DNA of 64,000 nucleotides. Origin: Acidobacteriota bacterium (lineage in GTDB: Bacteria; Acidobacteriota; Vicinamibacteria; JAXLQT01). The notes beneath the pieces are model-generated. The model worked only from the letters and a program-made list of their open reading frames with translations, did not search any database and was not told the origin of the DNA. This document shows, one piece after another, positions 26,043-61,685 of this stretch. Within the stretch, counting starts at the first letter, position 1; each line of letters begins with the position of its first letter. Both the position numbers and the translations under genes were made by a program. The DNA is taken from the NCBI GenBank assembly GCA_046331505.1, contig JAXLQT010000036.1:267-64266 (forward strand), in the 5' to 3' direction.

Positions 26043-26714
26043 TCACGACGTGCGCGGCACGCGCCGGGACAGCCAGGCGGCGACGTCCCGGATCTCCTCG
26101 GGCAGGACGTGGTGCGCCATCGGGTAGGTGTGGAACTCGACGTCGTAGCCGAGCTCCTCGAGCTGACGGCGGCAGAGCTGTCCGAGCGGCAGCGGCAAGA
26201 GTGGGTCGTGGGTGCCGTGGGCCTGGAAGATGGGCGTGCTCTGGTTGGCGGGGCTGCGCTCCGTTGCGAGGGCTTCGGCCTCGATGAGGTAGGTGGAGAG
26301 GGCGAGGATCCCCGCGAGCTTCTCGGGGTGGCGAAGGCCGGCGTAGAGCGCGATGGCGGCGCCCTGGGAGAAGCCGGCCAGGAGGATGCGATGCGGGGCG
26401 ATGCCGCGAGACGTCTCGCGGGCGATGAGGTTCTCGACGTCCTCCTCCGACTCGCGGACGTCGCCCATGTCGTAACCGGCCGCGGTGCCGAGATCGGTGA
26501 TGTCGTACCAGGCGGGCATGAGCATGCCCATGTTGACCGTCACGCATCGCCGCGGAGCGTGGGGGAAGACGAAGCGCACGTGAGGCAGGCCCAGCTCGGG
26601 GACGATGGGCTCGAAGTCGTGGCCGTCGGCGCCGAGGCCGTGGAGCCAGATGATCGATCCGGAGTGCGGCTCCACGGGCTCGACATCGACCGTCGGGAGC
26701 AGCGGCCGCGCCAT
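26043..26714 (-). CDS. carboxylesterase/phospholipase (alpha/beta hydrolase, Abhydrolase_2)
   Basis: Start ATG at 26714 (TGATG overlap with the upstream stop). Motifs are IIWLHGLGADGHDF, the nucleophile elbow GFSQGAA, and HGTHDPLLP. Confidence 0.85.
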   Translation of the reverse strand: MARPLLPTVDVEPVEPHSGSIIWLHGLGADGHDFEPIVPELGLPHVRFVFPHAPRRCVTVNMGMLMPAWYDITDLGTAAGYDMGDVRESEEDVENLIARETSRGIAPHRILLAGFSQGAAIALYAGLRHPEKLAGILALSTYLIEAEALATERSPANQSTPIFQAHGTHDPLLPLPLGQLCRRQLEELGYDVEFHTYPMAHHVLPEEIRDVAAWLSRRVPRTS

Positions 26715-28747
26715 CAGGAGGAAGCCGTCGCTTCGTAGACCTTCGCGTCGATGAACAGGCGCACGACGTCGGAGTCGAGCTGGCCTTCCTTCACCTCGGC
26801 CTCGATGATGGCGAGCGCCTTTGGGACGGGCACCGCCTTCTTGTAGGGGCGGTCGCTCGCGGTGAGGGCGTCGTAGATGTCGGCGACGGTCATCATCCGC
26901 GACTCGATGGGGATGCGCTCGGCGATGAGCTTGCGCGGGTAGCCCTTCCCGGTGAGCTTCTCGTGATGGGCGTAGGCGATCTCCGGCACGCGCTGGAACT
27001 CGCGCGTCCACGGGATCTGGGAGAGGAACTCGAAGGTCTGCGTGACGTGGGACTCGATCTGCCGCCGCTCGGTCTCGTCGAGGCTCCCGCGGCGGATGGA
27101 GAGGAGACGCACCTCCCTCTCATCGAGGAACGGCCGCTCCTCGCCGCCGATGTCGCGGTAGGTCCGTGATCCGAGCTTGTGGATGGCATCGAAGTTGCCC
27201 TCGGCCAGCACGGTCGGCTCGTTGGCGATCAGGACCGTCGCGAGCGCGTCGTCCACGAGGCCGAGCTCGGCCTGGAGCCGCTGCTCGATCTCGGGGATCT
27301 CCTTCTCGAGCCCGGAGGCTCCGCGGCCGAGCAGCGTCTCCACCTTCTGTCGCAGTGTCTCCGCCTCGATCCACTTCTTGATGTAGGCGAACCGTGCGCG
27401 TACGAGATCAAGGTGCGCCGGGTAGAGCTTCTTGCCCTTTACCAGCACCTCCTCGCGGACGCCGACCTTGCCGAAATCGTGGAGCAGCGCTGCGTAGCGG
27501 ATCTGCTTCATCTGGTCGCTGGTGAACGACACCTGGCGGAACCGTCCCTCGCCGGAACGGGCGACGACGTCGGCGAGCGACGTCGTCAACGTCGCCACGC
27601 GGAACGAGTGGCCCGACGTGGTGGGATCGCGCTGCTCGATCGCGGTCACCGACGCGGAGACGAACCCCTCGAAGAGGTTCCGCACCTCGGCGTAGAGCTT
27701 GTTGTTCTCGATCGCGACCGCCGCCTGTCCCGCGAGCGAGAGCACGAGGTCGACGGTCGGCGTCGAGAACGTGATCACCTCGTCGTCGACGTTCTGCTGC
27801 GTCAGCCTCCGGCCGCCCCGCTGGCGGCGGCGGTTGATGAGCTGGAGCACTCCGAGCCGCTCGCCCTTCACGTTGGTCATCGGCACCACCAGGACTGACT
27901 TGGTGCGGTAGCCGCCCTTCTGGTCGAAGGAGCGATCGAAGCTCAGCTCCGACCCTTCCGGCAGGTTGTAGGCGTCCTCGATGTTGAGCACCTGCCCCGT
28001 CAGGACCACGAACCCGGCGAGGCTGCTCTTCTTCAGAGGCAAGGGCGTGCTCTCGCTCTTGTCGAAGTTGACCGAGTCGTTCTGCGCCACGCGGAAGATG
28101 AGGCACGGCTCCCCTTCGCGCTCCTCGAGCAGGTAGAGGCTCCCGGCGTCGCACCCGGCGAGCTCCCGCGCCTTCCGCAGGATGAGCGAGAGCAGCTTGT
28201 CGAGATCGCGCTCGGTGGAGAGCGCCATGCCGATCGCGTTGAGCTCGCGAAGCTCGCGCGTCCGGTGGATGAGCTCGCTCTCGAGGAGCCTCGCGCGCCG
28301 CACCTCGAGTGCGGTCAGCGCGGCGCTCTTGATCTGCCGCAGAAGCGTCCTCGGCCGGAACGGGGGCGGGGCGTAGGAGAACACGCGCTCCTCCGGGATC
28401 GCCTCGGGCCGGTCCTCGGGATCGCAGACCAGGATGACGCCGATGTCTTGCCGCAGCGCGAGAGTCGCGACGGCCGACGGCTGGAGCGCCTCCGCGGCGC
28501 CCGCCCCGAGCGCGAGCACCATGATCTGATCGCCCTCGATCGCCGGGAGGTCCGCGCCCGGCGCGAGCCGCGCGACCTGGATGCCGAGCGCTCTGGCAAG
28601 GAGCGCGGCCTCGTCGAGGGTCGCGTCCGCCGAGAACCCGAGGACCATCAGGGGCTCGACGGCGGTGCGCGCGAGCGACGGCAGCTCCTGGGTCTCGGAC
28701 GTCTGCCGGCTGTGCATCGGGACCTCGCGCATGGAGCGTCCACCCAT
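26714..28747 (-). CDS. GAF + HD-GYP domain protein (probable c-di-GMP phosphodiesterase)
   Basis: 677 aa. The GAF region is DAGSLYLLEE...LQLINRR. The split HD-GYP has HSFRVA, LLHDFGKVGV and HHEKLTGKGYP. The N-terminal ~150 aa are unrecognised. Confidence 0.8.
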   Translation of the reverse strand: MGGRSMREVPMHSRQTSETQELPSLARTAVEPLMVLGFSADATLDEAALLARALGIQVARLAPGADLPAIEGDQIMVLALGAGAAEALQPSAVATLALRQDIGVILVCDPEDRPEAIPEERVFSYAPPPFRPRTLLRQIKSAALTALEVRRARLLESELIHRTRELRELNAIGMALSTERDLDKLLSLILRKARELAGCDAGSLYLLEEREGEPCLIFRVAQNDSVNFDKSESTPLPLKKSSLAGFVVLTGQVLNIEDAYNLPEGSELSFDRSFDQKGGYRTKSVLVVPMTNVKGERLGVLQLINRRRQRGGRRLTQQNVDDEVITFSTPTVDLVLSLAGQAAVAIENNKLYAEVRNLFEGFVSASVTAIEQRDPTTSGHSFRVATLTTSLADVVARSGEGRFRQVSFTSDQMKQIRYAALLHDFGKVGVREEVLVKGKKLYPAHLDLVRARFAYIKKWIEAETLRQKVETLLGRGASGLEKEIPEIEQRLQAELGLVDDALATVLIANEPTVLAEGNFDAIHKLGSRTYRDIGGEERPFLDEREVRLLSIRRGSLDETERRQIESHVTQTFEFLSQIPWTREFQRVPEIAYAHHEKLTGKGYPRKLIAERIPIESRMMTVADIYDALTASDRPYKKAVPVPKALAIIEAEVKEGQLDSDVVRLFIDAKVYEATASS

Positions 28748-28805
28748 TTTAGCGACGGGCGCGGCAACCGGCGAGGCGCGCCATCGCTGCTATCATCCTC
28801 TCCCC

Positions 28806-41583: not shown

Positions 41584-42180
41584 TCAGCGCCCGCGGGGAC
41601 TCCGCTCGACCACTTCGTCGATGATGCCGTAGGCGCGCGCCTCCTCGGCCGTCATGAAGTTGTCGCGATCGGTGTCCTTGCGGATGTCCTCGAGGGTCTT
41701 GCCGGTCCTCCTCGCGAGGATCTCGTTGAGCTGATCGCGCATCTTCAAGATCTCGCGCGCGTGGATCGCGATGTCGGTCGCGCGTCCCTGGGCGCCCCCG
41801 AGCGGCTGGTGGATCATGATCCGCGAATGGGGCAGCGCGCGCCGCTTGCCCTTGGTGCCGCAGGCCAGGAGGAACGCGCCCATGGACGCGGCCTGCCCGA
41901 TGCACACGGTCTCGACGTCGCAGGCGATGTAGTTCATCGTGTCGAAGATGCCGAAGCCCGACGTCACGTAGCCACCGGGGCTGTTGATGTAGAAGGTGAT
42001 GGGCTTGGTCGGGTCCTGCAGCTCGAGGTAGAGGAGCTGCGCCACGATGAGCTGCCCCTTGTCGTCGTTCAGCTCGCCCGTGAGGAAGACGCAGCGCTCC
42101 TGGAGGAGCCGGGAGTAGAGATCGAAGCCGCGGTCGCCCTTGTCGGACGGCTCGATGATGGTCGGGATCTGGACTGGCAT
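41584..42180 (-). CDS. clpP: ATP-dependent Clp protease proteolytic subunit
   Basis: 198 aa. [23 protein letters not shown] (Ser), RIMIHQP (His) and [12 protein letters not shown] are textbook ClpP. Confidence 0.95.
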
Positions 42181-42189
42181 GGATGGCCT

Positions 42190-42416
42190 TTCGGTGAGAA
42201 CCGGCGGGGGATAAGCCCCCGCCCTACGTCCTTCTGCTTCGGTGAGAACCGGCGGGGGACAAGCCCCCGCCCTACGTCCTTCTGCTTCGGTGAGAACCGG
42301 CGGGGGATAAGCCCCCGCCCACGTCCTTCTGCTTCGGTGAGAACCGGCGGGGGATAAGCCCCCGCCCTACGTCCTTCTGCTTCGGTGAGAACCGGCGGGG
42401 AGAAGTCCCCCGCCCT
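42190..42416. repeat. tandem array of 4.7 copies of a 48-bp unit, each with a GC-rich hairpin (REP/BIME-like), directly upstream of clpP
   Basis: Units start at 42190, 42238, 42286 (47 bp, one T missing), 42333 and 42381 (diverged): ttcggtgagaaccGGCGGGGGataagCCCCCGCCctacgtccttctgc. Read on the clpP strand, each hairpin is preceded by GTAG. Confidence 0.85.
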
Positions 42417-42814: not shown

Positions 42815-44878
42815 ATGCGCGGTCCGCAGCTCGATCTCTCTGGGCTCCCCGCGCAGGCGCCCCGCACGCGCTTCGGCCGCGCGCTGCGCGGCTGCGTCCT
42901 GACCAACATCGCAGTCTCTGTGGTCGTCCTGCTCCTGTCTCCGTCCTGGGTGACGCGTGCCGGCGCCGTGTTCGGGATCGTGCTCGTCCTCCCGGTGATC
43001 GGCTTCTGGGGGATCCAGTGGTTCCGGAGGAAGGTGCTCTGGAAGGTCCGGCGGCGGCTCTTCGTGAGCTTCCTGCTGATCGGCGTGCTGCCCCTCTTCC
43101 TGTCGCTGTCACTGTCCCTCGTCGCCGAGGTGTTCTACGCCTTCTTCGCGAGCGCCTCGGCGGTGAAGCTCGCGCTCCAGGAGGTGGGACCGACGGTGGC
43201 GCTCATCGCAGACAACGCCTCGACGATGGCCACCCACCTCGCCGCCCACGGCCGCGAAGGCGCGGGCGACGAGCCCGGAGAGCTCCTGCCGCAGGGAATC
43301 CAGAGGCGCTTCCCGGGCATCGCCATCCACCGCATCGGCCCGGGAGCCGACCGCGATCCGACCGACTCCAAGAAGGCGATGCCCGAGTGGATGCGCGGCC
43401 CCGCGGTCGACGCCCTGTTCCTCGAGCCGGGATACCACGTCGCGTGGGCGAGCCTGCGGGTCGTCGAAGGCACCGAGGACCGGGTGCTGATCGTCCTGCC
43501 GCTCGACGAGAAGCTCGTGGAGGAGCTGCGCGGGCGCCTGGGCATCGGCACGCTCGTCAAGGTCCTCGCTCTCGACGAAGGGTGGGACGACGAGGACAGC
43601 CACGACCCCGGCATCACGATCGACACCGGAGGTCACCGGGCGCACATCAACGGAGACGACGACACCGAGGAGTTCTTCAAGCAGGTCAAGACGAGGCTGA
43701 ACGAGATCGGGCGGCCCCTCCCTTACCTCTGGGGCGTGACGATGGCGACACAGCGGTGGGAGGATCGGAAGCCGGCCGACGTGCTCGTCTTCTTCGCGTC
43801 GTCGTTCGGCGGCGATCTCGATCGCATGAAGGGCGCCTACTCCGGGGCGCCCGGCGAGTTCGTCAAGGCGCTCGGGATCGTCTTCGTCGCGTGCTTCGTG
43901 CTCGCGTACATGATCTTCCTCGGGATGGGGGTCCTCATCGCGGGCGCGGTCTCGGGGGGGATCGGGAGGCTCTACCAGGCCACGACGGAGTTCGCGCGCG
44001 GAAACCTCGACTTCCGGATCAAGGTGCGCCAGCGCGACCAGCTCGGCCACCTCGCGGCGTCGATGAACGCGATGGCGGACAACGTCCAGCGCCTCCTGCG
44101 CGAGTCCGCCGAGCGCGAGCGGCTCACCCAGGAGTTCGCGCTCGCCCAGGAGGTGCAGAAGAAGCTCCTCCCTCCCGCGTTGCCCCCCTTCTGCGGCGCG
44201 ACCGTCGCCGGCCGGCTCAAGCCGATGAGCGAGGTCGGCGGCGACACCTACGACTGGATGACGCTCTCGGACCACGAGCTCTTCGTGATGATCGGCGACG
44301 TCTCCGGCCACGGCCTGCGTCCCGGCCTCCTCGCCGCGATGGCCAAGGCGTGCCTCATGACGAAGGTGACGCACGACACCGGCCACCCCGCGATCCTCCA
44401 GGCGCTCCACAAGGTGGCCCTCGGCGCAATGGACCGCCGCCTCTTCATGACGGTGTCGCTCGCGACCTTCGACTTCACGGCCCACACGGTGACCCTCTCT
44501 TCGGCGGGCCACCCGCCGACGCTACGCTACCGGGACGGCGCCGTGGCCGAGCTCGGCGACGCGACGTACCCGCTCGGCGTGCGCGAGCAGCGTGAGTTCA
44601 CGTCGCGGGTCCACGACCTCGCGGCGGGCGACGTCTACCTGCTGATCTCCGACGGCGTCGTCGAGGGTCGCAACGGCAACGGCGACGTCTGGGGCTACGA
44701 CCGACTCTGCGACTCTCTCGCGCGCCACGCCTCCCGTCCGGCGGAGGAGATCCTCGACGGCATCCTCGACGATCTGCACTCCTACTGCGGCAACCGTCCG
44801 CAGGACGACGACATCACACTGGTCGTCGTCCAGATCGCCTCCGCTCCTGCTCCGGCAGGGGAGGCTCCCACGACCTAG
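42815..44878 (+). CDS. membrane-bound HAMP + PP2C/SpoIIE-family serine phosphatase (RsbU-like)
   Basis: 687 aa. TM helices flank a periplasmic-like domain. The HAMP region is around IGRLYQATTEFARGNLDFRIKV. PP2C motifs are EVGGDTYDW, VMIGDVSGHG, SAGHPP, LLISDGV and DDITLVVV. Confidence 0.85.
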   Translation: MRGPQLDLSGLPAQAPRTRFGRALRGCVLTNIAVSVVVLLLSPSWVTRAGAVFGIVLVLPVIGFWGIQWFRRKVLWKVRRRLFVSFLLIGVLPLFLSLSLSLVAEVFYAFFASASAVKLALQEVGPTVALIADNASTMATHLAAHGREGAGDEPGELLPQGIQRRFPGIAIHRIGPGADRDPTDSKKAMPEWMRGPAVDALFLEPGYHVAWASLRVVEGTEDRVLIVLPLDEKLVEELRGRLGIGTLVKVLALDEGWDDEDSHDPGITIDTGGHRAHINGDDDTEEFFKQVKTRLNEIGRPLPYLWGVTMATQRWEDRKPADVLVFFASSFGGDLDRMKGAYSGAPGEFVKALGIVFVACFVLAYMIFLGMGVLIAGAVSGGIGRLYQATTEFARGNLDFRIKVRQRDQLGHLAASMNAMADNVQRLLRESAERERLTQEFALAQEVQKKLLPPALPPFCGATVAGRLKPMSEVGGDTYDWMTLSDHELFVMIGDVSGHGLRPGLLAAMAKACLMTKVTHDTGHPAILQALHKVALGAMDRRLFMTVSLATFDFTAHTVTLSSAGHPPTLRYRDGAVAELGDATYPLGVREQREFTSRVHDLAAGDVYLLISDGVVEGRNGNGDVWGYDRLCDSLARHASRPAEEILDGILDDLHSYCGNRPQDDDITLVVVQIASAPAPAGEAPTT

Positions 44879-44923
44879 GGCGGCGGAGGCGGCGGACCTC
44901 CAGCGGATCCCGTGCGGGCGTAG

Positions 44924-44932
44924 TGCTAGAAT
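44924..44932 (+). promoter_or_regulatory. candidate extended -10 promoter element (TGcTAGAAT) upstream of the Pup-like ORF
   Basis: TGCTAGAAT lies 43 nt upstream of GTG 44975. No convincing -35. Purely a motif match. Confidence 0.25.
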
Positions 44933-44974
44933 CTGGTCCACGCGGCGCGCCGCGAAAGGCTCGGAGGTACGTCA

Positions 44975-45154
44975 GTGCGAAAGTCGAATGCAGAGGCGCG
45001 AGAGTCGAAGTCGGGAGTCGCCAGGGTGCTTCCGGCCACGGAGGAGAGCGCGAAGTCGAAGGCGGCGGCGCTCGTCAAGGACCTGAAGCGCGATGCCGCA
45101 AAAGATCCGAAGGACTACGTGACCCGCTGGGTCGTGCCGGGAGGCGGCGAGTAG
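44975..45154 (+). CDS. Pup-like small protein modifier (59 aa) ending Gly-Gly-Gly-Glu
   Basis: Below the 60-aa cutoff of the ORF track. GGAGG at 44963-44967 lies 7 nt before the GTG. Translation: MRKSNAEARESKSGVARVLPATEESAKSKAAALVKDLKRDAAKDPKDYVTRWVVPGGGE*. By hand count, 48 of 59 codons end in G/C. It is immediately upstream of a Pup-ligase family gene. Confidence 0.65.
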   Translation: MRKSNAEARESKSGVARVLPATEESAKSKAAALVKDLKRDAAKDPKDYVTRWVVPGGGE

Positions 45155-45237
45155 CCCGCCCGCTCCGGCGACCGCGGGGCGCAACCGAACGCGGCCCGTC
45201 CCGGCGCGCGGCGTCCGCGCAGCCGTCCCAGCCCGAT

Positions 45238-47145
45238 CGCCGCATCTTCGGGCTCGAGACCGAGTACGCCATCCTCTTCGAGCCTGCCGCCGGAGAGCGG
45301 CAGGCGCCCGACGGCCCGTCCATCTACGACGCCATCTCCGCGAGCGTCCTGTCCCGCGTGCGGGCGCTCCCCGCCAGGCACCGCAAGCACGGCCACTTCC
45401 TCGAGAACGGCGCCTTCCTCCATTACGAGGGACGCGCGGAGTCCGAGCCCCAGGGCCTCCTCGAGCTCTCCACGCCGGAGTGCCGTACCGCGAGGGACGT
45501 GGCGCTGTACAGCAAGGCGGGCGAGAAGCTCCTTGCGGATGCCCTGCCCGACGCCGAGAAGACGCTCGCCGCCGCGGGCTATCCGGGGACCATCGTGCTC
45601 GGGAAGAACGCCCGCGACGCCTTCGACAACACGTACGGAAGCCACGAGAACTACCTGGTCCGCGACCCGATCCCCCGCGCCAGGGCGCTGCTGCTCCTGG
45701 CGGCGTTCCTCGTCCTCCGGCTGCCGCTCCAGCTCTACGACGTGCTGCGCAGGGCCGGCGAGCTCCTCTACGTCATCCTGACGTTCGGCCTCTACCTGTG
45801 CGGGCTCGCGGTCATGCTCGTCCTGCGCCTCTTCAGGCGCCGAGACGAACGGTCCATTCCCCAGCGCATCGATCGCTTCCTCGAAGAGGTCGACGACGTC
45901 CTCCGGCCCCCCGTGCGCCGCGTCGGGATGGCCTTCCACCTCCTCTTCCGCCCCGCGGCGCGGCTCCTCTCGGCATTCATGAGGCTGTTCCTGTTCGAGG
46001 ACATCCGGAGGTTCCTTCCCACCTTCCTCGCGACGCGCCAGATCTTCACCGGCGCGGGCCACTTCTCGCGCGATCCGGACGAGCCGATCTTCTCCGTCAC
46101 CGAGAAGGCCGCCTCCATCACCTGCGTGACGCGCCTTTACTGGGACGACGCGCGCCATCGCCCGATGATCGACCTGAAGAACTTTCTCTTCGACGCGCGC
46201 GCCGTCGTGGCGCCGGAGAAGCGCCTGCAGCTCGTGCTGTCGGACTCGAACATGAGCGACGTCGCCGACTTCCTGAAGTTCGGCACGACGTCGCTCGTGC
46301 TGAGAGCGATCGAGGAGGGCGCCATCCCGGCGGGCCTGTGCCTCGCCGATCCCGTCGACGGCCTCCATCGCGTCGCGGGCGACCCCGAGCTCCGCACCAA
46401 GCTCGCGCTCGCGGACGGCCGCGAGCTGACCGCGCTCCAGATCCAGTGGGAGTACCTCACCCTTTGCGAGGGGCTCTTCCGAAGGAGCGGCACCGTGAGC
46501 ATCTCGGATCGCGAGGTGCTCCGGGAGTGGCGCCAGACCCTGACGGACCTGGAAGCGGATCCGGCCCTCGCCTCGGACCGGCTGGACTGGCCGCTCAAGC
46601 TGTTCCTCATCGGCCAGTCTCTCGAGGACGTCGATGCCCCGGATGCTCCCGGCGGCGCCGAGGATCCCCTGGCCGCGCTCGAAGTACTGGATCCGTGGCG
46701 CGAGATCGTGCTCCAGGCCGAGCTTTCCGGCGTCGATCTCAAGGGCGACGGGCGGGACATGGATCGCCTGCGCGCGCTCTTGCCCCGCGACGTCTTCGAG
46801 CGGCTCCAGCGGGGCCTCGCCTTCCGCCGCCTCGATCCCTCACGCCTCGAGCGGCAGGCGGATCGGATCTACCGGGCAAAGAAGGCCGACCTCAAGTACC
46901 ACGACATCACGCCGGGCCGCGGGTACTACGCCCGGGCCCGCGCGACGGAGCTCGCGCGGCCGCTGCACGACGACGAGAGAGTCGCCTGGGCCGCGAACAA
47001 CCCGCCCGCGGGGACCCGCGCCGCCCTCCGAGGAGCGTTCGTGAAGAGCCACCACCGCGATCCTGGGGGACGCGTCAACTGGACCGGTGGTCGCGCCCGC
47101 AAGGCGCGCGTGCGGTTCGGATCGCCATTCGACACGGACGCGTGA
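45238..47145 (+). CDS. PafA/Dop family (Pup-ligase/deamidase fold) protein with a ~100-aa hydrophobic insertion; true start undetermined
   Basis: RRIFGLETEYA, FLENGAFLHYE...LSTPEC, GKNARDAFDNTYGSHENYL, FLATRQIFTGAGH, LVLSDSNMSDVADFLKFGTTSLVL, LKYHDITPGRG and PPAGTRAALRGAFV parallel M. tuberculosis PafA motifs as I recall them. 45238 is the first conserved codon, not a start codon. Confidence 0.85.
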   Translation, partial: RRIFGLETEYAILFEPAAGERQAPDGPSIYDAISASVLSRVRALPARHRKHGHFLENGAFLHYEGRAESEPQGLLELSTPECRTARDVALYSKAGEKLLADALPDAEKTLAAAGYPGTIVLGKNARDAFDNTYGSHENYLVRDPIPRARALLLLAAFLVLRLPLQLYDVLRRAGELLYVILTFGLYLCGLAVMLVLRLFRRRDERSIPQRIDRFLEEVDDVLRPPVRRVGMAFHLLFRPAARLLSAFMRLFLFEDIRRFLPTFLATRQIFTGAGHFSRDPDEPIFSVTEKAASITCVTRLYWDDARHRPMIDLKNFLFDARAVVAPEKRLQLVLSDSNMSDVADFLKFGTTSLVLRAIEEGAIPAGLCLADPVDGLHRVAGDPELRTKLALADGRELTALQIQWEYLTLCEGLFRRSGTVSISDREVLREWRQTLTDLEADPALASDRLDWPLKLFLIGQSLEDVDAPDAPGGAEDPLAALEVLDPWREIVLQAELSGVDLKGDGRDMDRLRALLPRDVFERLQRGLAFRRLDPSRLERQADRIYRAKKADLKYHDITPGRGYYARARATELARPLHDDERVAWAANNPPAGTRAALRGAFVKSHHRDPGGRVNWTGGRARKARVRFGSPFDTDA

Positions 47146-47157
47146 CCCGGTGCCGCG

Positions 47158-48288
47158 TCACTTCGCGACGCGGCGGAGCTCGCTCTTTCGCCCGGGTGGG
47201 AGCGCGCGTAGCTGGGCGGAGCGCCACGAGATCCCCTCGCGGCCCGCGATGGCGCGGAGCACCCTGAACGCGGCGTCGCCGAGCCACCCCGGCGTGGCGC
47301 AGAGCGCGGCGAGGGCCGGGAGCTCCGCCTTGCCTCCGATCGCCTCGGCGGCGTGCAGGTGCTCGACGCGGAGCTCGTCGCGCAACGTCGACAGGAGCTC
47401 GCGAAGCTCCACCGCGGCCACGCGGCTCTCCTGAGACGCCAGGGCGAGATGGGCGCGGGCCGACAGGGCCACGACCTCCTGGCGATCCCGCGGGCGCGCG
47501 TGGAGCGCTTCCCCCGCGCGCTTGCACACCTCCCACAGCGGGGGGATCAGCGCGGCGTCTTTGACCTCGGTCGCGAGGAGCGCGAGGAGGCCCAGGCGGA
47601 CCGGTTCCGACTCCAGCTCGAGCCGCCGCGCGAGCGTCGAGACGGGGGTCACGCGCGCGACCGCGCGGCGGTGACGCAGCTCCTCCGGGGACTCGGGAAC
47701 GAACGCGAGGTACGCGTCGAGGCTCGGCGCCGCATCCGAGGGCGCGCGCTGCTGGGACGCATCGGCGGCAACGCGCATGTCGCCGAGATCGGCGAGGAGC
47801 TCGTCGAGCTCCCCCCCGGCGCGTTCGAGGGCAACGGGCGTCAGCATCGCGCCCTCCTGTGCGGACACGTTCGCCTCGCTCGCGCCGCTCACGCCGGCGC
47901 GCTGGAGGCGCGCGAGGCTCACGGCGATCGCAGCCAGCTCGGGAGGCCCCGCGGCGGGAACCAGGCCCGCGAGGGCGCGCACCGCCGCCGGCTTCTCGTA
48001 GGAGGCCAGGACCTTGATGGCGAGGATCGATCGCGCGCCGCGCCGCGCGCCCGCGGCACCCTCGAGAACGGGAATGACCCTCCGGTCCTTCAGCAGGCCC
48101 AGGAGCCGCAAGAGCCGCAGCGCCTGGAGCTCCTCCGCCGCGCCGAGCGCCTCGCAGATCGAGGGAAACGCGGGCGAGCCGATCACGAGCAACCGCGCCG
48201 CCGCCGCGGAAGCGCCATCGGGATCGGGGGCGGCGAGCCGCGCAAGGAGCTGCTGGATCTCGGTCCGCTTCGACGTCGCAATCGGCAA
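47158..48288 (-). CDS. HEAT/ARM-like helical repeat protein, function unknown
   Basis: 376-aa ORF, Leu/Ala-rich helical repeats (LLRLLGLLKDRRVIPVLEGAAG...AAVRALAGL). Convergent with the ligase gene. Confidence 0.5.
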   Translation of the reverse strand: MPIATSKRTEIQQLLARLAAPDPDGASAAAARLLVIGSPAFPSICEALGAAEELQALRLLRLLGLLKDRRVIPVLEGAAGARRGARSILAIKVLASYEKPAAVRALAGLVPAAGPPELAAIAVSLARLQRAGVSGASEANVSAQEGAMLTPVALERAGGELDELLADLGDMRVAADASQQRAPSDAAPSLDAYLAFVPESPEELRHRRAVARVTPVSTLARRLELESEPVRLGLLALLATEVKDAALIPPLWEVCKRAGEALHARPRDRQEVVALSARAHLALASQESRVAAVELRELLSTLRDELRVEHLHAAEAIGGKAELPALAALCATPGWLGDAAFRVLRAIAGREGISWRSAQLRALPPGRKSELRRVAK

Positions 48289-48325
48289 GAGGGGCCTTCC
48301 CGCGCGTCGCTATACTACCCGCCCG

Positions 48326-49660: not shown

Positions 49661-49963
49661 CTAGTCCGCCGCGAAGGGCAAGAGCGCGATGTTGCGCGCG
49701 CGCTTGATCGCGATCATCAGCTTGCGCTGGTGCGTGGAGCAGGTGCCGGAGATGCGGCGGGGGAGGATCTTCCCGCGCTCGGGGATGAACTGGAGCAGGA
49801 GCTTCTGGTCCTTCCAGTCGATGGAGTCGATCTTCTCCGCGCAGAACTTGCAGACCTTGCGTCGCCGGAAGAAGCCGCGGCCGCGTCCGCCCGCGCCGCC
49901 GCCGCGCGGGCCGCGCCCGCCTTCCTTGGGATCCCGGAGATCGTCGTTGCTCTCGTCAGCCAT
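49661..49963 (-). CDS. rpsR: 30S ribosomal protein S18 with Arg/Gly-rich N-terminal extension
   Basis: [65 protein letters not shown] is classic S18, preceded by [32 protein letters not shown]. Confidence 0.9.
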
Positions 49964-49984
49964 GTGTTTGCCTTTCGAACCGGT

Positions 49985-50055
49985 GGGGGCAAGCCCCCTG
50001 CGTATCTCGTGGGGAAGAGCCCCACCAAGACATTGCGAGGGGATCGACCCCTCGC
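49985..50055. repeat. three consecutive GC-rich hairpins between dnaJ and rpsR (one REP-like; the dnaJ-proximal one a candidate terminator)
   Basis: GGGGGCaaGCCCCC (49985-49998), GTGGGGaagagCCCCAC (50009-50025), GCGAGGGGatcgaCCCCTCGC (50035-50055). The flank gaaccggtgggggcaagccccc parallels gaaccggcgggggataagccccc of the clpP-upstream repeat. Confidence 0.45.
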
Positions 50056-50108
50056 TGAATCGGGGCCAAGAGCCTACCTCATGCTCCCGGCCGCCACAAC
50101 CCGCGGCG

Positions 50109-51281
50109 TCATCCGAAGATGCTCTTGACCTTCTCGAAGATGGACTTTCCCGCCGCGGGTGCGGACCCGGACCCGCTGGCGGCAGCCGTGCCCTTGGGCT
50201 CGACGATGGGCCCGCCCGCTCCTTCGAGGAGCTTCTGATAGAGCTCGCGCTCGTGAGCGCTGAGGTCGGTCGGCGTGCGCACCTCGACGACCACGTACTG
50301 ATCGCCGTGCCCGTATCCGTCCATGCGGGTGAGACCCTTGTTGCGCAGACGGAACGTGGTCCCGTGCTGCGTCCCGGCCGGCACCGAGACCTTCTCCTCG
50401 CCGCCCATCGTCGTCGGCACGACCAGCGTCGTGCCGAGGGCCGCCTGCGGAAACGAGATCGGGACCGGGCAGTAGACGTCGGCGCCGTCGCGCTTGAACA
50501 GCGGGTGATCGGCCACGTGGACGTCGACGTAGAGATCCCCCGACGAGCCGCCGAGGATCCCGCTCTCGCCCTGGCCGCGCACCCGCATGCGCTGCCCCGA
50601 TTCGACGCCGGCGGGGATCGGCACCTTCACCGCCTTCTCGACGTGAACGCGCCCCTGGCCGCGGCACGCGCGGCACGGATCGGTCAGGATCTCGCCCCGT
50701 CCCTGGCATCGCGGGCACGTGCGGGCGATCGTGAAGATGCCCTGACTGAACGCCACCTGGCCGCGGCCGCGGCAATCGGGACAGCGCGACCGTCCCCGCT
50801 CGCTCGCCGCACCGCTGCCATGGCAGACCTCGCACGCGTCCAGGCGCGGGACCGTGATCGTCTTCTGCACCCCCTTCGCCATCTCGTCGAAGGTGATCGA
50901 GACGCCCGCGCGAAGGTCGGACCCGCGCCGGCCACCGCCGCGGCGCTCGCCGCCGAATCCCCCGCCGCCGAACCCGAACAGGTCTCCGAGGATGTCGGAG
51001 AAGTCCGCGAAGATCGTGGGGTCGAAGCCGGCCCCGCCGGATGCGGCGGACGTGCCGACGGCCGCATGCCCGAAGCGGTCGTAGCGCGCGCGCTTCTCGG
51101 CATCGGAGAGCACCGCGTACGCCTCGGCCGCTTCCTTGAACTTCTCCTCGGCCTCGGCGTTGCCGGGGTTCTTGTCGGGATGGTACTGAAGCGCGGCCTT
51201 CCGGTAGGCCTTCTTGACTTCGTCCGCCGTGGCGGTCCTGGCCACGCCCAGGACCTCGTAGAAGTCTCGCTTGTCCGCCAA
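50109..51281 (-). CDS. dnaJ: molecular chaperone DnaJ
   Basis: J domain (DFYEVLGV...YHPDKN), G/F region, and four CxxCxGxG zinc motifs. Confidence 0.95.
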
Positions 51282-51287
51282 GGCGCC

Positions 51288-53168
51288 TTAGGTTCCCGGC
51301 TTGCGCGCGCCCGGTCCCGTGGGCGCGGCGCCCGTGTCCATCACGCCCTCGTCCGCCGGCTTTCCGGCGCCGAACAGCATCGCATCGGTGAGCTGCTGCC
51401 CCACGACCTGGAGCATCACGATGGCGTTGTTCATCTCGGCCAGCGTCCCCTCCTGGAGCACCTGGCGCGACTTCTTCAGCGTGTCGCGGATCCCCGGCAG
51501 CTCCTCCTTCTTGAGGAAGCGCCCGACCTCCTGGAACACCCGTTCGTTCGTGTAGAGGAGCCCTTCGAGCTTGTTCTGCTGGAGCTGCTTCTCCTTGCGC
51601 TGGCGATCCTCCTCCGCGTGCTTGCTCGCATCCTCGATGATGCCCTTGATCTCGTCCTCGGAGAGCCCCGACGACGCGGTGATACGGATCGCCTGCTCGC
51701 GGCCCGACGCCTGGTCCTTCGCCGACACGTGGACGATGCCGTTGCTGTCGACCTCGAAGGTCACGTCGATCTGCGGCACGCCGCGCGGCGCCGGAGGGAT
51801 GCCGACGAGCTCGAACTTCGCAAGCGACTTGTTGTGGGCGGCCACTTCGCGCTCCCCCTGGAGCACGTGGACCTCGACCTTGCCCTGGTTGTCGGTGACC
51901 GTCGAGAACACCATCGTCTTCTTGATCGGGATCGTGGAGTTGCGCTCGATGACCTTGGTGAACATCCCGCCGTGGGTCTCGATGCCCAGCGACAGCGGCG
52001 TGACGTCCAGGAGGATGAGGTCCTTGATGTCGCCCTGGAGGATGCCGCCCTGGATCGCGGCGCCGACGGCCACGACCTCGTCTGGGTTCTTGTCGCGGTT
52101 CGGCTCTTTCTTGAAGATCTCGCGCACGATCTCGATGACGCGCGGCGTGCGGGTCTGCCCGCCGACGAGGATGATCTCGTCGAGCTTGTCGGGCGACATC
52201 GCCGCGTCCTTCATCGCCTTCAGGCACGGCTCGACCGTACGGTCGATGACGTCCTTCACCAGCTCCTCGAACTTCGCCCGCGTCAGCGTCGTGGTGAGGT
52301 GCTTCGGACCGGTGGCGTCGGCGGAGATGAACGGCAGGTTGATCTCCGTCGTCTCGACCGAGGAGAGCTCGATCTTCGCCTTCTCGGACGCCTCCTTCAG
52401 GCGCTGCAGCGCCATGCGGTCGCTCCGGAGATCGATCTTGGTCTTCTCCATGAACTCCCGCACGAGCCAGTCGATGATCTTCTGGTCGAGGTCCTCGCCG
52501 CCGAGCAGCGTGTCGCCGTTGGTGGCGAGCACCTCGAACACGCCGTCGCCGATCTCGAGGATCGAGATATCGAACGTGCCCCCGCCGAGGTCGTAGACCG
52601 CGATCTTCTGGTTCTTGCGCTGGTCCATGCCGTAGGCCAGCGCCGCGGCCGTCGGCTCGTTGATGATCCGCAGGACGTTCAGCCCCGCGATCTTCCCGGC
52701 GTCCTTCGTCGCGTTACGCTGGCTGTCGTCGAAGTAGGCGGGGACCGTGATGATCGCCTCCTCGACCTTCTCACCGAGGTGCTCCTCGGCGATCTCGCGC
52801 ATGCGCTGGAGCACGATGGCGGAGATCTCGGGAGGGCTGTACTCGCGGTCGCGCACCTTGATGCGCGCGTCGCCGTTCTGCGTTTCCGTCAGCTTGTAGG
52901 GCAGGAGCTTCATCACCTTCTGCACTTCGTCGCTGTCGAACTTGCGGCCGATGAGGCGCTTGACCGCGTAGAGCGTGTTCTGCGGGTTGGTGATGGCCTG
53001 GCGCTTGGCGATCTGTCCAACGAGACGCTCGCCCTTCTCCGTGAAGGCCACGATCGACGGCGTGGTGCGCGACCCTTCCTTGTTCGCGATCACGAAGGGC
53101 TTGCCGCCTTCGATGACGGACACGCACGAGTTGGTGGTGCCGAGGTCTATCCCGATGATCTTCGCCAT
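51288..53168 (-). CDS. dnaK: molecular chaperone DnaK (Hsp70)
   Basis: [30 protein letters not shown] and the rest are full-length Hsp70 (626 aa). Confidence 0.97.
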
Positions 53169-53185
53169 GAAACTTCTCCCAGAGC

Positions 53186-54020
53186 TTATCCGCCCTCAGA
53201 CCCGCCCGGCGACGTCCCATCGCCGTCGCCCGATGCGACGGAAGGATCGGCGGCCGCCGGAACCGCCTCGTCCGCGCCGGCCGGCGCCACCGCCACCTTG
53301 ACGCACGCGGCTCGCAGCAACCGGTCGTGGTGCATGTAGCCCTTCTGGAGCTCCGAGACCACGGTGTTGCTCGGGAAGTCCGCCCGCTCCTCGCTTGCGA
53401 CCGCCTCGTGGAAGTTGGGATCGAACTCCTGGCCGATGGAGACGATCTCCTTGAGGCCGAAGCGCCCCAGCGCGTCGCGGAACTGCTTCATGATGAGCTC
53501 CACGCCCTGCCGGATGCTCTGGGCATCGGCCTCCCGATCGACGCTCATCGCGCGCTCGAAGTTGTCGAGCACGGGCAAGAGGTCCTTGAGGATGCCGCTG
53601 TGGGCGTACTTCTGGAACTCGTCCTTGTCGCGCTGCATGCGCTTGCGGAAGTTGTCGAAGTCCGCGATCTTCCGCGCGACGGCGTCGCGCAGATCGGTGA
53701 TCTCGACCTTCTGGCGATCGATCTCCGACTCGAGCTCGGCGATGCGGCGCTGGTCCTTCGTCGGACCCACGGGCCTGGGAGGGGCGACGGGGGCCGCCTC
53801 TTCCTCGATGATGATCTCCTCCTGGATCTCCTCCGGCGGATCGGCGCCCGCATCCGCGGCCGCGGCCCGCTCCTGCGTCCGCTGCTTCTGCCTCTCGGTG
53901 ATCCTGTCGGCCGATGCCTGCGCCTCCTTGAGGATGTCGTCGAGGCTCTCCTCGCCGGTCTCCTGATCGGCGTCGAGGAACAGGATGTCGTCGTCGGCCG
54001 GGGCCTTCCCCTTCTTGCGC

Positions 54021-54028
<8 letters not shown>
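53186..54028 (-). CDS. grpE: nucleotide exchange factor GrpE (long acidic N-terminus and Ala/Gly-rich C-terminal tail)
   Basis: [15 protein letters not shown]...[11 protein letters not shown]...[12 protein letters not shown]...[13 protein letters not shown]. The start overlaps the hrcA stop by 8 nt. Confidence 0.9.
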
Positions 54029-55103
<1,075 letters not shown>

Positions 55104-55181
55104 GGCAAATGGAAGGCCCCCGCGCGAAACCCGGTGGCCGCTCTGGACGAGAAGGGTCTCGCTCGTGGGGCTCGAAAAGCG

Positions 55182-55216
55182 GCCAAAACATAGCAGGGCA
55201 TGGTTTTGGCTGTCAA
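55182..55216 (-). promoter_or_regulatory. candidate sigma70-type promoter of hrcA operon (TTGACA-18-TATGTT) overlapped by an 8-bp inverted repeat
   Basis: On the minus strand, TTGACA is at 55216-55211 and TATGTT at 55192-55187. The inverted repeat GCCAAAAC (55182-55189) N13 GTTTTGGC (55203-55210) spans the spacer and the -10. Confidence 0.45.
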
Positions 55217-55224
55217 GAAGACGG

Positions 55225-56271
55225 CTATTCCCGGCGGTAGAACTCTCGCGGATCCCAGGCCTCGCGCATCGCCTCCCCGATGAAGGTCGTCAGCAGGAGC
55301 GTGCTCACGAGCGCCGAGAAGGGAGACAGGATGATCCAGACGCCGGTCGTGATCTGGCCGCGCCCCTGCTCGAACAGCTCGCCCCAGCTCGGGGCCGGCG
55401 CCGGGATGCCGAAGCCGAGGTAGTCGAGCGAGGTGAGGAAGAAGATGCTCCCGACGAGGGTGAAGGGGAAGAGCGTGATCACGGGACTGAGAGCGTTGCC
55501 CATGACGTGACTGAAGATGATGCGACCCGACGATGCGCCCAGCGCCCGAGCGGCCGTCACGTAGTCGAGGTTGCGCTCCCGGAGGAACTCACCCCGGACG
55601 TAACGGCTCGTCCCGATCCAGTCGAACACGAGCAGGATCACGACGAGGAGCCAGAACCCGGGCGTGAGGATCGACGATACGAGCACGACCACGTAGAGGA
55701 ACGGGAGCGCGCTCCAGATCTCGATCAGGCGCTGGCAGGATATGTCGATCCAGCCTCCCCAGTAGCCCTGGATGGCGCCTATCACGATTCCCAGGACGGT
55801 CGCCAGCACGCTCAGGACCAGGCCGAAGCTGACGGACGTCCGGAAGCCGTAGAGCAGCCGCGCGAGCACGTCGCGGCCGCGGTCGTCGGTCCCCATCGGA
55901 TGACTCCAGCTGGGCTTGCTCGGCGGAGGATCGCCGGGGATCTTGATGCTCTCCAGTGGTGAGAACGGATGCACCGGCAGGAGGATGCGCCCTCCCGCCG
56001 CCTTGAACTCGGGGCTCGCCGCCAGCTCCCGGAAGTCGGTCTCCTCGTCGGCGGATCCGCCGAACAGGGTCTTGCCGTAGTAACGATGGTTCAGCGCCGG
56101 GAAGTAGGTGCGGCCGCCGAACGAGACGAAGATCGGTCGGTTGCCGACGAACAGCTCGATCCCGAGGCTGAGGACGTAGGTGATGGTCAGGATCCAGAGC
56201 GAGTAGTAGCCGCGCTTGAGCCGGCGGAATTTCGCGAACCTCTTCTTCGTGAGGGGATCGAGCTTGAGCAT
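55225..56271 (-). CDS. ABC transporter permease (peptide/opine family, YejE-like)
   Basis: The N-terminus LKLDPLTKKRFAKFRRLKRGYYSLWIL and a long periplasmic loop precede the BPD_transp_1 region (..YVTAARALGASSGRIIFSHV..). Confidence 0.85.
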   Translation of the reverse strand: MLKLDPLTKKRFAKFRRLKRGYYSLWILTITYVLSLGIELFVGNRPIFVSFGGRTYFPALNHRYYGKTLFGGSADEETDFRELAASPEFKAAGGRILLPVHPFSPLESIKIPGDPPPSKPSWSHPMGTDDRGRDVLARLLYGFRTSVSFGLVLSVLATVLGIVIGAIQGYWGGWIDISCQRLIEIWSALPFLYVVVLVSSILTPGFWLLVVILLVFDWIGTSRYVRGEFLRERNLDYVTAARALGASSGRIIFSHVMGNALSPVITLFPFTLVGSIFFLTSLDYLGFGIPAPAPSWGELFEQGRGQITTGVWIILSPFSALVSTLLLTTFIGEAMREAWDPREFYRRE

Positions 56272-60187: not shown

Positions 60188-61685
60188 ATGGTCGAGACCA
60201 GCAAGCCCAGCATCCTCGTCGTCGACGACAACGACGAGATCCTCGAATTCCTCACGCTCCAGCTCGAGCGGCGCGGCTACCGGGCCATCACCTGCCGGCG
60301 CGGGCGCGACGCCGTGAGGCTCGCGCAGGAGCGGCGGCCCGACCTCGTGCTCCTCGACATCCTTGATGCCCGACGTCGACGGCTTCCGGATCTGCCGCAT
60401 GCTGAAGGACGATCCGGAGACCGCGAAGATCCCCGTCATCTTCCTGACGGCGAAGACGACCGACGTCGACAAGTTGAAGGGCTTCGAGGTGGGGGGCGAG
60501 GACTACCTCGTCAAGCCGTTCAAGATCCACGAGCTCATCGGCAAGGTGCAGATCTTCCTGCGCATCAAGGCGCTCATCGACGTCGCCGAGCAGAAGGCGA
60601 AGAGCGCCCGCGCGCTGTTCGAGATCGGCAAGCTCATGTGCGGGTCCCTCGATCTTCCGGAAGTCCTCTCGGCGATCACGGCGTCGGTGAAGGACCTGCT
60701 GCACGCCGACTCCGCCTCCATCATGCTCTGCGACGAGGAGCGGCGGAACCTCCGCGTGAGCCACGTGGAGGGCCCGTACGCCGAGCTCTACATCGAACGG
60801 ACGGTGCCGATCTCCGAGAGCATCGCCGGCTGGGTGGTCCGGCGCGGCGAGCCCGTGCTGATCGACGACATCGACAACGATCCGCGCTTCGGCGGCTTCC
60901 CGCGGCGGAGCCAGGTCAAGTCCGCGATGATCACGCCGCTCACCCACAAGGACGTCACCTTCGGCACGATCAACGTGAGCTACCTCGCCGAGCGACGGCT
61001 CGGGTCGGAGGCGCTCCAGCTCCTCTTCACGCTGTCGTCTCAGGCCGCGCTCGCCATCGCGAACGCCCGGCTCGTGGCGTCCATCCGGGCGTCGCACCTG
61101 CGCACGATCGAGGCGCTCGCCAAGGCGGTCGACCAGAAGGACAGCTACACCGCGAGCCATTGCGACAACGTCGCCGACTACGCCGCTTTGATCGCGGAGC
61201 GCCTGGGGCTCCCGGCGATCATCGTCGAGGAGATCCGGGTCGGCGGGATGCTCCACGACATCGGCAAGATCGGCATCGGGGACGACATCCTCAAGAAGCC
61301 CGCGCGGCTCGACACCGCGGAATACACGAGCATGATGGAGCATCCGAGCAAGGGCCACGAGATCCTGCTCGGCGCCGGCATCTCAGGCGCGACGCTCGAA
61401 GCCGTCCTGCACCATCACGAGCGCATGGACGGGAAGGGCTACCCGGCGGGCCTCGCGGGGGAAGAGATCCCGCTCGCGGCGCGCATCGTGCTCGTCGCCG
61501 ACGCGTTCGACGCGATGACGACGGACCGCGTCTACCGGAAGGGGATGCCGTTCTCCTCCGCCATCACGGAGCTGCGCAAGTACGAGGGGAGCCAGTTCGA
61601 CAAGGGTTGCATCGACGCGCTCTGCGAGGCGCTCGTCGCGGTGGGAAAGATCGTCGCCGCCGAGCTCGAGCAGGCGCAGCCGTAG
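60188..61685 (+). CDS. response regulator receiver + GAF + HD-GYP protein (RpfG-like); apparent +1 frameshift at ~60359-60366
   Basis: Frame A from ATG 60188 gives MVETSKPSILVVDDNDEILEFL...RRPDLVLLDI. Frame B (track ORF 60363..61685) continues (L)MPDVDGFRICRMLKDDPETAKIPVIFLTAK...VKPF, then GAF, then HDIGKIGI...HHHERMDGKGYP. Deleting one T in gacatccTTgatg restores DILMPDVDGF. Confidence 0.75.

Follow-up and report, generated by a model that had tools for sequence, protein, structure and literature searches.

Pupylation is usually regarded as an actinobacterial, proteasome-linked pathway. A Pup-like protein known as UBact occurs in Nitrospirae, Verrucomicrobia, and other Gram-negative phyla, in loci linked to homologs of the proteasome, Mpa, and Dop. 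Here we describe a small gene and an adjacent Pup_ligase family gene found in a 64-kb stretch of DNA (64,000 nucleotides of contig JAXLQT010000036.1 from an Acidobacteriota bacterium, referred to below as the window) and in related loci, where the linkage reported for UBact is not seen. The small gene, at 44975..45154 on the forward strand of the window, encodes a 59-residue Pup-like protein that we call the tag, and the gene for the enzyme follows on the same strand at 45244..47145, with a putative start at ATC 45244. The tag gene is a real and conserved gene, and it is almost certainly a functional partner of the enzyme encoded downstream.

The closest described system comes from a computational analysis (Iyer, Burroughs & Aravind 2008, Biol Direct 3:45, PMC2588565), which found Pup-like genes with a C-terminal G[EQ] sporadically outside Actinobacteria. 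In Plesiocystis pacifica and Rhodopirellula baltica, a Pup gene and a Pup ligase are unlinked to proteasome genes, and the ligase carries transmembrane (TM) segments inserted directly after core strand 4, leading to the proposal of a regulatory pupylation of membrane-associated proteins (PMC2588565). The window shares with this type a small G[EQ]-ended gene (59 residues, where 50-90 are expected) next to a Pup-ligase homolog, an insertion in the ligase right after core strand 4 (the [HQ]x[NH] motif, here SHENYLV), and the lack of linkage to proteasome genes in the window and in the flanks of related loci. Relatives of the two taxa, the myxobacterium Paraliomyxa miuraensis (locus L021) and a Pirellulaceae metagenome-assembled genome (MAG; locus L001, E = 7e-4), carry the tag family of the window, which suggests that this family is the "Pup" of the paper. 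The window differs in that its enzyme has 2 TM segments by hydropathy and a two-helix hairpin by AlphaFold2 rather than the 4 TM segments of the paper, and in its origin from an Acidobacteriota-like lineage whose closest synteny is with a contig labeled UBA4820. Its upstream gene codes for a membrane HAMP-SpoIIE phosphatase; the membrane-protein gene that the paper links to the pair was not recognized in the window.

The arrangement is therefore not new in kind, since it was predicted by computation in 2008, and the window is another example of it from an Acidobacteriota-like lineage. New here are the extent of the tag family and its sequence signature, the failure of curated models to detect the family, and the distinct active-site features of the enzyme clade that accompanies it.

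The tag gene and its family

A first-pass annotation of the window, made from the sequence alone, had proposed a hidden open reading frame (ORF) that starts at a GTG with GGAGG 7 nucleotides upstream and ends in GGGE before a TAG stop, and the sequence and its translation agree with this in every detail. The ORF at 44975-45154 (+) has 59 codons and translates as VRKSNAEARESKSGVARVLPATEESAKSKAAALVKDLKRDAAKDPKDYVTRWVVPGGGE, then TAG; the protein ends ...YVTRWVVPGGGE, and its C-terminus, ...KDYVTRWVVPGGGE-TAG, places GGGE directly at the stop codon. The Shine-Dalgarno sequence GGAGG was read at 44963..44967 (+), and a sequence scan of 44700-45400 found neither a sigma-70-like promoter nor an intrinsic terminator. 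"Hidden" was only partly apt: the product has no name, but an identical 59-residue protein is already in the public protein collection (P0001).

Besides the translation and the position upstream of the ligase, codon usage and a family profile identify this ORF as a gene. G or C occupies the third position in 48 of the 59 codons, as had been claimed, so that the GC fraction at third positions (GC3) is 0.81; the long ORF at 44923-47145, read in its own frame where the two overlap, has 0.51. In sequence of 70% GC, a difference of this kind is what a coding small frame would be expected to produce. A hidden Markov model (HMM) from which the window sequence and the seven relatives nearest to it had been left out gave the ORF 48.9 bits (E = 6e-13 in a search of 5,840 six-frame peptides). 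The product is rich in lysine and not acidic, again as described in the first-pass annotation, with 8 Lys, a net charge of +4, and an isoelectric point of 9.7. Its conserved C-terminal block comprises approximately residues 33-59; the sequence before it is variable, with disorder predicted. A low-confidence AlphaFold2 model places helices at residues 23-43 and 45-49, the second of them short, ahead of an extended tail, in agreement with the description of Pup as a "bihelical unit plus extended tail" (PMC2588565).

A word-indexed search with the single window tag returned only the tag itself, and a single-sequence locus scan of GTDB genomes found distant relatives only, yielding real Pups and the Pirellulaceae locus. 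The family was revealed by gathering the ORFs upstream of ligase homologs and then searching with profiles. When 1.84 billion representatives were searched exhaustively with the profile, 50 matches were obtained at E <= 1e-3, approximately 44 of which are proteins of 34-76 residues with the same ending. The consensus of the family is I..DA...P..YV..W.VPGGGE. Across the 50 proteins analyzed, the terminal residue is Glu in all 50 and Gln in none, a Gly-Glu end is present in 47, and the near-invariant positions are D(-20), Y/F(-12), V/I/L(-11), P(-5), and GG(-3, -2). Constraint is confined to the C-terminal ~25 residues, the N-terminal halves being free of it, and the median net charge is +1. Since every tag ends in Glu, no deamidase step would be needed, which fits the modifier that the first-pass annotation had envisaged from the terminal Glu of the window protein.

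The tag is found in strict adjacency to one type of enzyme. When the family HMM was run on six-frame translations of the window and all loci, each positive locus had exactly one match, and in 11 of 12 distinct loci with a long-form Pup_ligase (PF03136) the tag ORF shares the strand of the ligase and immediately precedes it, with a gap of -4 to 209 nucleotides. These loci span at least six phyla or candidate phyla, with sources in Acidobacteriota, Myxococcota, Planctomycetota, Riflebacteria, Xenobia, and marine or groundwater metagenomes. The two closest relatives, one of them on the contig labeled Acidobacteriota UBA4820, have ligases of 56% and 53% identity to that of the window, and in both of them a 70-residue tag gene, ending ...RDALKAPKRYVVQWEVRGGGE and ...RDASQDPRGYVLRWEVRGGGE, has been called before the ligase. 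Relatives with 25-35% ligase identity also have a small ORF directly upstream, some of which were never called as genes, with the endings ...AYVKNFVAPGGGE, ...AYVKQWVVPGGGE, ...GYILAFTVPAGGE, ...NYVDSWVVNRGAE, ...GYLEDTVVPEGGE, and ...KQYADQSLAPEGE. The distant carriers comprise Candidatus Xenobia, Riflebacteria, a Tara Oceans contig, groundwater metagenomes, and the Paraliomyxa miuraensis and Pirellulaceae loci already mentioned. A Shine-Dalgarno sequence precedes the tag in most loci (GGAGG or AGGAG also in L007, L009, L010, L019, and L001), and the ORF is kept in genomes of 45-73% GC. Conservation, which had been put forward as a check on the small ORF, is thus borne out: the ORF and its G-G-E end are kept, free of frameshifts, upstream of ligases that are 25-56% identical.

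Some features of individual loci are of interest in their own right. TAG is the stop codon in 8 of 11 tag genes (the window, L007, L009, L011, L013, L014, L019, and L021), most of them from GC-rich genomes, and in GC-rich genomes TGA is usually the dominant stop codon. The tag genes of the window, L007, and L009 share the final codons ...GGC GAG TAG. In a Candidatus Riflebacteria locus (L017:10165-12165), the long-form ligase is called as two genes of 315 and 320 residues that are 90 nucleotides apart, with the tag gene overlapping the first by 4 nucleotides; either the enzyme is split in nature, or the MAG carries a frameshift or a stop there. In locus L016, an unusual FTIHHSPFT-like peptide motif recurs in more than one frame of the region upstream of the long-form ligase (2900-3374), a sign of tandem repeats or of a fault in the assembly.

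The long-form ligase

The enzyme encoded downstream of the tag, which has 633 residues in the public collection, matches PF03136 with E = 1e-85 and 288.8 bits (cut-off 25). Among PDB sequences it matches Dop (2.6e-43) and PafA (4.9e-30). Its AlphaFold2 model has a mean predicted local distance difference test score of 89.9 and a predicted template modeling score of 0.89, and Foldseek searches with this model recovered Dop at 1e-28 and PafA at 1e-26. The catalytic core motifs GhExE, HEN, TRQ, and DSN are intact, and PafA, Dop, and the long forms all share the invariant columns G3, E5, E7, E135, Y137, R265, D334, and N336.

The first-pass annotation had called this gene a PafA/Dop-family enzyme, and the family assignment stands, though orthology with either enzyme does not. 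Scores are below the cut-offs of both equivalog models, at 210.6 versus 551.3 bits for PafA (TIGR03686) and 193.2 versus 492.3 bits for Dop (TIGR03688). The approximately 40-residue Dop-loop is absent from the window enzyme, and the alpha-loop region matches neither PafA nor Dop. Public pipelines call some of the relatives "Pup amidohydrolase" or "PafA2 family." In a crude neighbor-joining tree, midpoint-rooted and without bootstrap, the long forms make up a clade outside the grouping of PafA and Dop. This placement agrees with the use of planctomycete paralogs, 29-31% identical to PafA and Dop, as the outgroup that rooted the PafA/Dop tree (Hecht et al., PMC7947786). Judged by its sequence, the enzyme belongs to a third clade, predicted to be membrane-anchored, that is orthologous to neither PafA nor Dop.

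Two insertions set the window enzyme apart from PafA and Dop. Insertion 1 (45676..45990 (+), enzyme residues ~145-249) follows directly on the strand-4 motif SHENYLV and adds ~105 residues, seen as a gap in the Dop alignment at query residues 146-252. It contains two TM-like segments by Kyte-Doolittle hydropathy (149-167 and 175-193), and AlphaFold2 folds it into a long hairpin of helices 145-197 and 205-249, so that alignment, hydropathy, and model together predict a hydrophobic membrane anchor. TM-like segments are present in every long-form homolog (565-665 residues) and in no canonical 451-residue PafA. Insertion 2 (46612..46869 (+), residues ~457-542) lies in the C-terminal domain, where the alignment jumps from query 458/Dop 370 to query 545/Dop 384; it is helical in the AlphaFold2 model and absent from PafA and Dop.

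The start of the window ligase is unusual. Between the tag stop and the conserved N-terminus of the ligase lies a GC-rich spacer of 89 nucleotides (45155..45243 (+)) that contains no ATG, GTG, TTG, or CTG in any frame and whose predicted RNA fold is not out of the ordinary (z = -0.6). The public product begins "MFGLETEY," which implies a start at ATC 45244, and no Shine-Dalgarno sequence precedes this codon. The ligases of relatives start at a GTG within the spacer, 54-66 nucleotides past the tag stop. A start at GTG 44923 was ruled out by codon statistics, GC3 in that frame being 0.51. A tag-ligase fusion by read-through or frameshifting was also rejected: it would need a -1 shift, there is no slippery site, and the invariant terminal Glu would be buried in the product.

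Possible activity and relation to Pup

We propose that the conserved C-terminal ~25 residues of the tag serve both as a recognition element and as an acyl donor for the downstream enzyme. The hydrophobic hairpin that follows core strand 4 would keep this enzyme on the cytoplasmic side of the membrane. The tag would dock on the tethered enzyme by its two short helices, and the flexible Gly-Gly-Gly tail would bring the terminal Glu to the active site, where ATP would phosphorylate its gamma-carboxylate. An isopeptide bond would then form by attack of an amine, for which a lysine on a membrane-associated protein is the best candidate. The mechanism is drawn by analogy with PafA, and as a whole, including covalent conjugation to protein lysines, we judge it moderately probable. 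The analysis shows a conserved gene next to this enzyme clade, an invariant terminal Glu, an intact catalytic core, and a hydrophobic insertion; the conjugation, its targets, the membrane topology, and the biological role are inferred. No proteasome subunit, Mpa/ARC ATPase, or second Pup_ligase is encoded in the 64-kb window or in ~8-10 kb flanks of its relatives. Given a tag that is not acidic and that has no linked proteasome, Mpa, or Dop, a regulatory or other fate of the modified protein is more likely than a role as a degron for the proteasome.

The case for a Pup-like modifier draws on a set of shared features. Like actinobacterial Pup, the tag has ~60 residues and is predicted to be disordered, and both have a C-terminal helix-turn-helix (modeled at low confidence in the tag) followed by a Gly-Gly-Glu/Gln tail at the stop codon. 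The hydrophobic pattern [FY]V..[YW]V of the tag is in register with that of Pup, the last 30 columns of an hhalign alignment being ungapped (YVxxWVVPGG with FVRxYVQKGG), with one Gly more in the tag before the terminal residue. The tag gene also adjoins an enzyme of the Pup_ligase family with the same fold and core catalytic residues. There are differences as well. The tag always ends in Glu and never in Gln, its net charge (median +1, window +4) contrasts with -10 to -13 in Pups, no Dop, Mpa, or proteasome genes are found near it, and its enzyme belongs to a separate clade that has two insertions and lacks the Dop-loop, with a Glu where the catalytic Asp would stand and an alpha-loop motif of its own. 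UBact resembles the tag as a small G-E-ended protein from outside Actinobacteria that is associated with Pup-ligase-family enzymes. The UBact ending, ...RYRQRTGE, differs from the ...YVxxWxVPGGGE of the tag family.

Several results weigh against the reading of the pair as a Pup-type conjugation system, beginning with the sequence of the tag. None of 11 tag family members matched the Pfam or NCBIfam models of Pup (PF05639, TIGR03687) or UBact (PF20513, NF033388) at E <= 10, and for the window protein the Pup models likewise gave nothing at E <= 1. As controls, a real Pup from locus L003 matched Pfam Pup at 2e-21, and M. tuberculosis Pup and a UBact sequence matched their own Pfam and NCBIfam models at 1e-21 to 1e-24 (2e-21 to 4e-21 across the control Pups, 2e-24 to 4e-24 for UBact). 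With the family HMM, real Pups reach 0.6-4.9 bits and do not rise above UBact, and a search of PDB sequences with the tag family profile found no Pup chain. When the tag profile was aligned by hhalign to three real Pups and the M. tuberculosis sequence, P was 0.014 and the probability 3%. The first-pass annotation had compared the tag to the tail of M. tuberculosis Pup, quoting that tail in a form consistent with the real Pups of loci L002, L003, and L005; the resemblance holds as a pattern and is weak at the level of profiles, where the outcome comes close to the lack of similarity that the annotation had named as a refutation. The tag thus resembles Pup on all indirect criteria yet fails membership of the curated Pup family. 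Its homology to Pup is not established, and it is either a very divergent homolog or a convergent analog. Curated Pup and UBact models miss the family, and genome annotation therefore labels the tag "hypothetical" or overlooks it.

The remaining points of this kind concern the enzyme and the extent of the evidence. Glu62 (in "HYE"), conserved across the clade, occupies the position of the catalytic Asp of PafA and Dop, and the alpha-loop residues TT...NTRDEPHAD, which are functionally important for PafA (PMC7947786), are replaced in the clade by [FY]WDDxxxRPxxD[LI]KNF, so that the chemistry of the enzyme could differ. Its sequence and structure scores are slightly better against Dop than against PafA, which leaves room for a hydrolase activity. 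The ligase frame contains no ATG, GTG, or TTG between 44923 and 45358. Translation in the window may begin at a non-canonical codon, the original start may have decayed, or the assembly may be in error; given the lack of a canonical start, the window ligase may be poorly expressed or misassembled in the record. The 9.4-kb contig L016 has a long-form ligase and no member of the tag family. The absence of proteasome genes was established over the 64-kb window and the ~8-10 kb flanks of relatives, and a search of the accessible literature found no experimental or biochemical study of the long-form clade.

Of the alternatives to this proposal, one can be set aside directly. The small ORF could have arisen by chance in DNA rich in GC, or the true coding frame there could be that of the long ORF at 44923-47145 in its 5' part; long spurious ORFs are common at 70% GC, with 91 ORFs of at least 40 residues within 16 kb, and the frame of the ligase runs through the small ORF without a stop. 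Against this stand the difference in GC3 between the two frames, the profile match at E = 6e-13 obtained with the window's own clade excluded, the retention of the ORF in genomes of 45-73% GC, and the fact that relatives begin their ligase after the stop of the small ORF. With GC3, the conservation of one hit per locus, and the leave-out HMM pointing the same way, chance is effectively refuted and retains almost no probability. A tag that is a real gene product could still act as a non-covalent partner that is never conjugated, such as a regulator, a pseudo-substrate inhibitor, a chaperone, or a membrane-targeting subunit, because conserved adjacency shows a functional link rather than conjugation and HMMER detects no homology to Pup. 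We think this improbable, as an invariant Glu at the stop codon after a flexible Gly-rich tail (50/50) is what a gamma-glutamyl ligase requires of an acyl donor and is hard to explain otherwise.

Two further alternatives accept the tag as a substrate and differ in what the enzyme does with it. The enzyme could be mainly a Dop-like hydrolase, or bifunctional, removing or recycling tags that another enzyme elsewhere in the genome ligates. The slightly higher scores to Dop, the public names "Pup amidohydrolase" and "PafA2 family" given to relatives, and a probably promiscuous PafA/Dop ancestor (PMC7947786) favor this reading, which we regard as improbable too in view of the missing Dop-loop, a terminal residue that is always Glu and leaves nothing to deamidate, a single family enzyme per locus with no second paralog in the window or flanks, a score below the Dop equivalog cut-off, and the position of the clade outside both PafA and Dop in the crude tree. 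Alternatively, the tag could be an acyl donor whose acceptor is not a protein lysine but a lipid amine (phosphatidylethanolamine, in the manner of Atg8-PE), a polyamine, or an amino acid. The enzyme family descends from gamma-glutamyl-cysteine-type small-molecule ligases (PMC2588565), hydropathy and AlphaFold2 suggest that the insertion puts the active site beside the membrane, the alpha-loop region with which PafA contacts its protein targets (PMC7947786) is replaced by a clade-specific motif, and the flanks of relatives contain no linked degradation machinery. Against such an acceptor, the closest characterized enzymes use protein lysines, the 2008 analysis favored membrane proteins as targets (PMC2588565), and the module has no lipid-metabolism gene as a consistent neighbor. 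A non-protein acceptor is therefore unlikely in our estimation. It would form part of a broader picture that we consider equally doubtful as a whole, a two-gene tagging system of diderm bacteria in which a membrane-embedded third clade, possibly of ancestral type, would attach a non-acidic GGE tag to membrane-proximal amines, perhaps lipid head groups instead of or besides lysines, and in which the same enzyme may remove the tag and no proteasome takes part.

Genomic neighborhood and significance

The window is syntenic with the UBA4820 contig (locus L007), which is the closest synteny that was found. The two share the order TPR/AAA protein, ClpP, HAMP-SpoIIE, tag, ligase, 383-residue protein, DUF192, and DnaJ-DnaK-GrpE-HrcA. 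Both therefore have a proteostasis neighborhood, consisting in the window of clpP at 41584-42366 (-) and dnaJ-dnaK-grpE-hrcA at 50109-55289 (-). As it is absent from distant carriers, this neighborhood may be lineage synteny only. Outside the lineage of the window and UBA4820, only the tag and the ligase are conserved, and the pair thus behaves as a two-gene module. BrkB lies downstream of the module in L010, L019, and L020 only, and no single membrane-protein gene is conserved across the loci.

Directly upstream of the module in the window is a gene for a membrane HAMP-SpoIIE (PP2C-type) phosphatase (42815..44878 (+); Pfam SpoIIE 2e-42, HAMP 8e-10). It is also upstream of the module in L007, and in L008 and L009 there is a partial upstream ORF with no assigned family. 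The phosphatase may be in the same operon as the module or may act as its regulator. Other phospho-signaling genes occur near the module as well, namely Ser/Thr kinases in L012, L017, and L021, a Metallophos protein in L017, and STAS with an RsbW-like kinase in L016. These flanking genes could hint at regulation or could reflect the abundance of kinases in these genomes.

Downstream of the ligase and convergent with it is a gene for a conserved protein of ~376-383 residues (47158..48288 or 47158..48309 (-)), which is syntenic with L007:9937-11127 and 45% identical to the L007 protein by BLASTP (E = 5e-62). It has no Pfam or PADLOC match. Its sequence is rich in Ala and Leu, and it could be a HEAT-like repeat protein; in L010 and L019, proteins annotated as HEAT_2 are encoded close to the module. 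A reading of the module as anti-phage defense was rejected, as none of its proteins matched the PADLOC library of defense systems. Farther away, a 1216-residue ORF at 49689-53339 (+) that matches Pfam "NAD-GH" (PF10712) at 3e-166 runs antisense to dnaJ (50109-51287 (-)) and dnaK (51288-53195 (-)), and was rejected as a gene and taken as a shadow ORF of these two. Two GAF-HD (HD_5) proteins, one of them with a receiver domain, are encoded at 26714-28789 (-) and 60318-61685 (+), and are probably cyclic-nucleotide signaling phosphodiesterases unrelated to the tag module.

Taken as a two-gene module, the tag and its ligase represent a system related to pupylation, predicted to be membrane-tethered and with no proteasome genes linked to it, that is thinly spread over many diderm phyla. 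For experimental work, the analysis supplies a family of ~50 tags with an invariant Glu, a signature by which tags can be recognized, and an enzyme clade with distinct active-site features. If the enzyme conjugates the tag, the two may provide an orthogonal tag-ligase pair for proximity labeling, and their activity would constitute a new protein-tagging, possibly lipid-tagging, pathway in bacteria.

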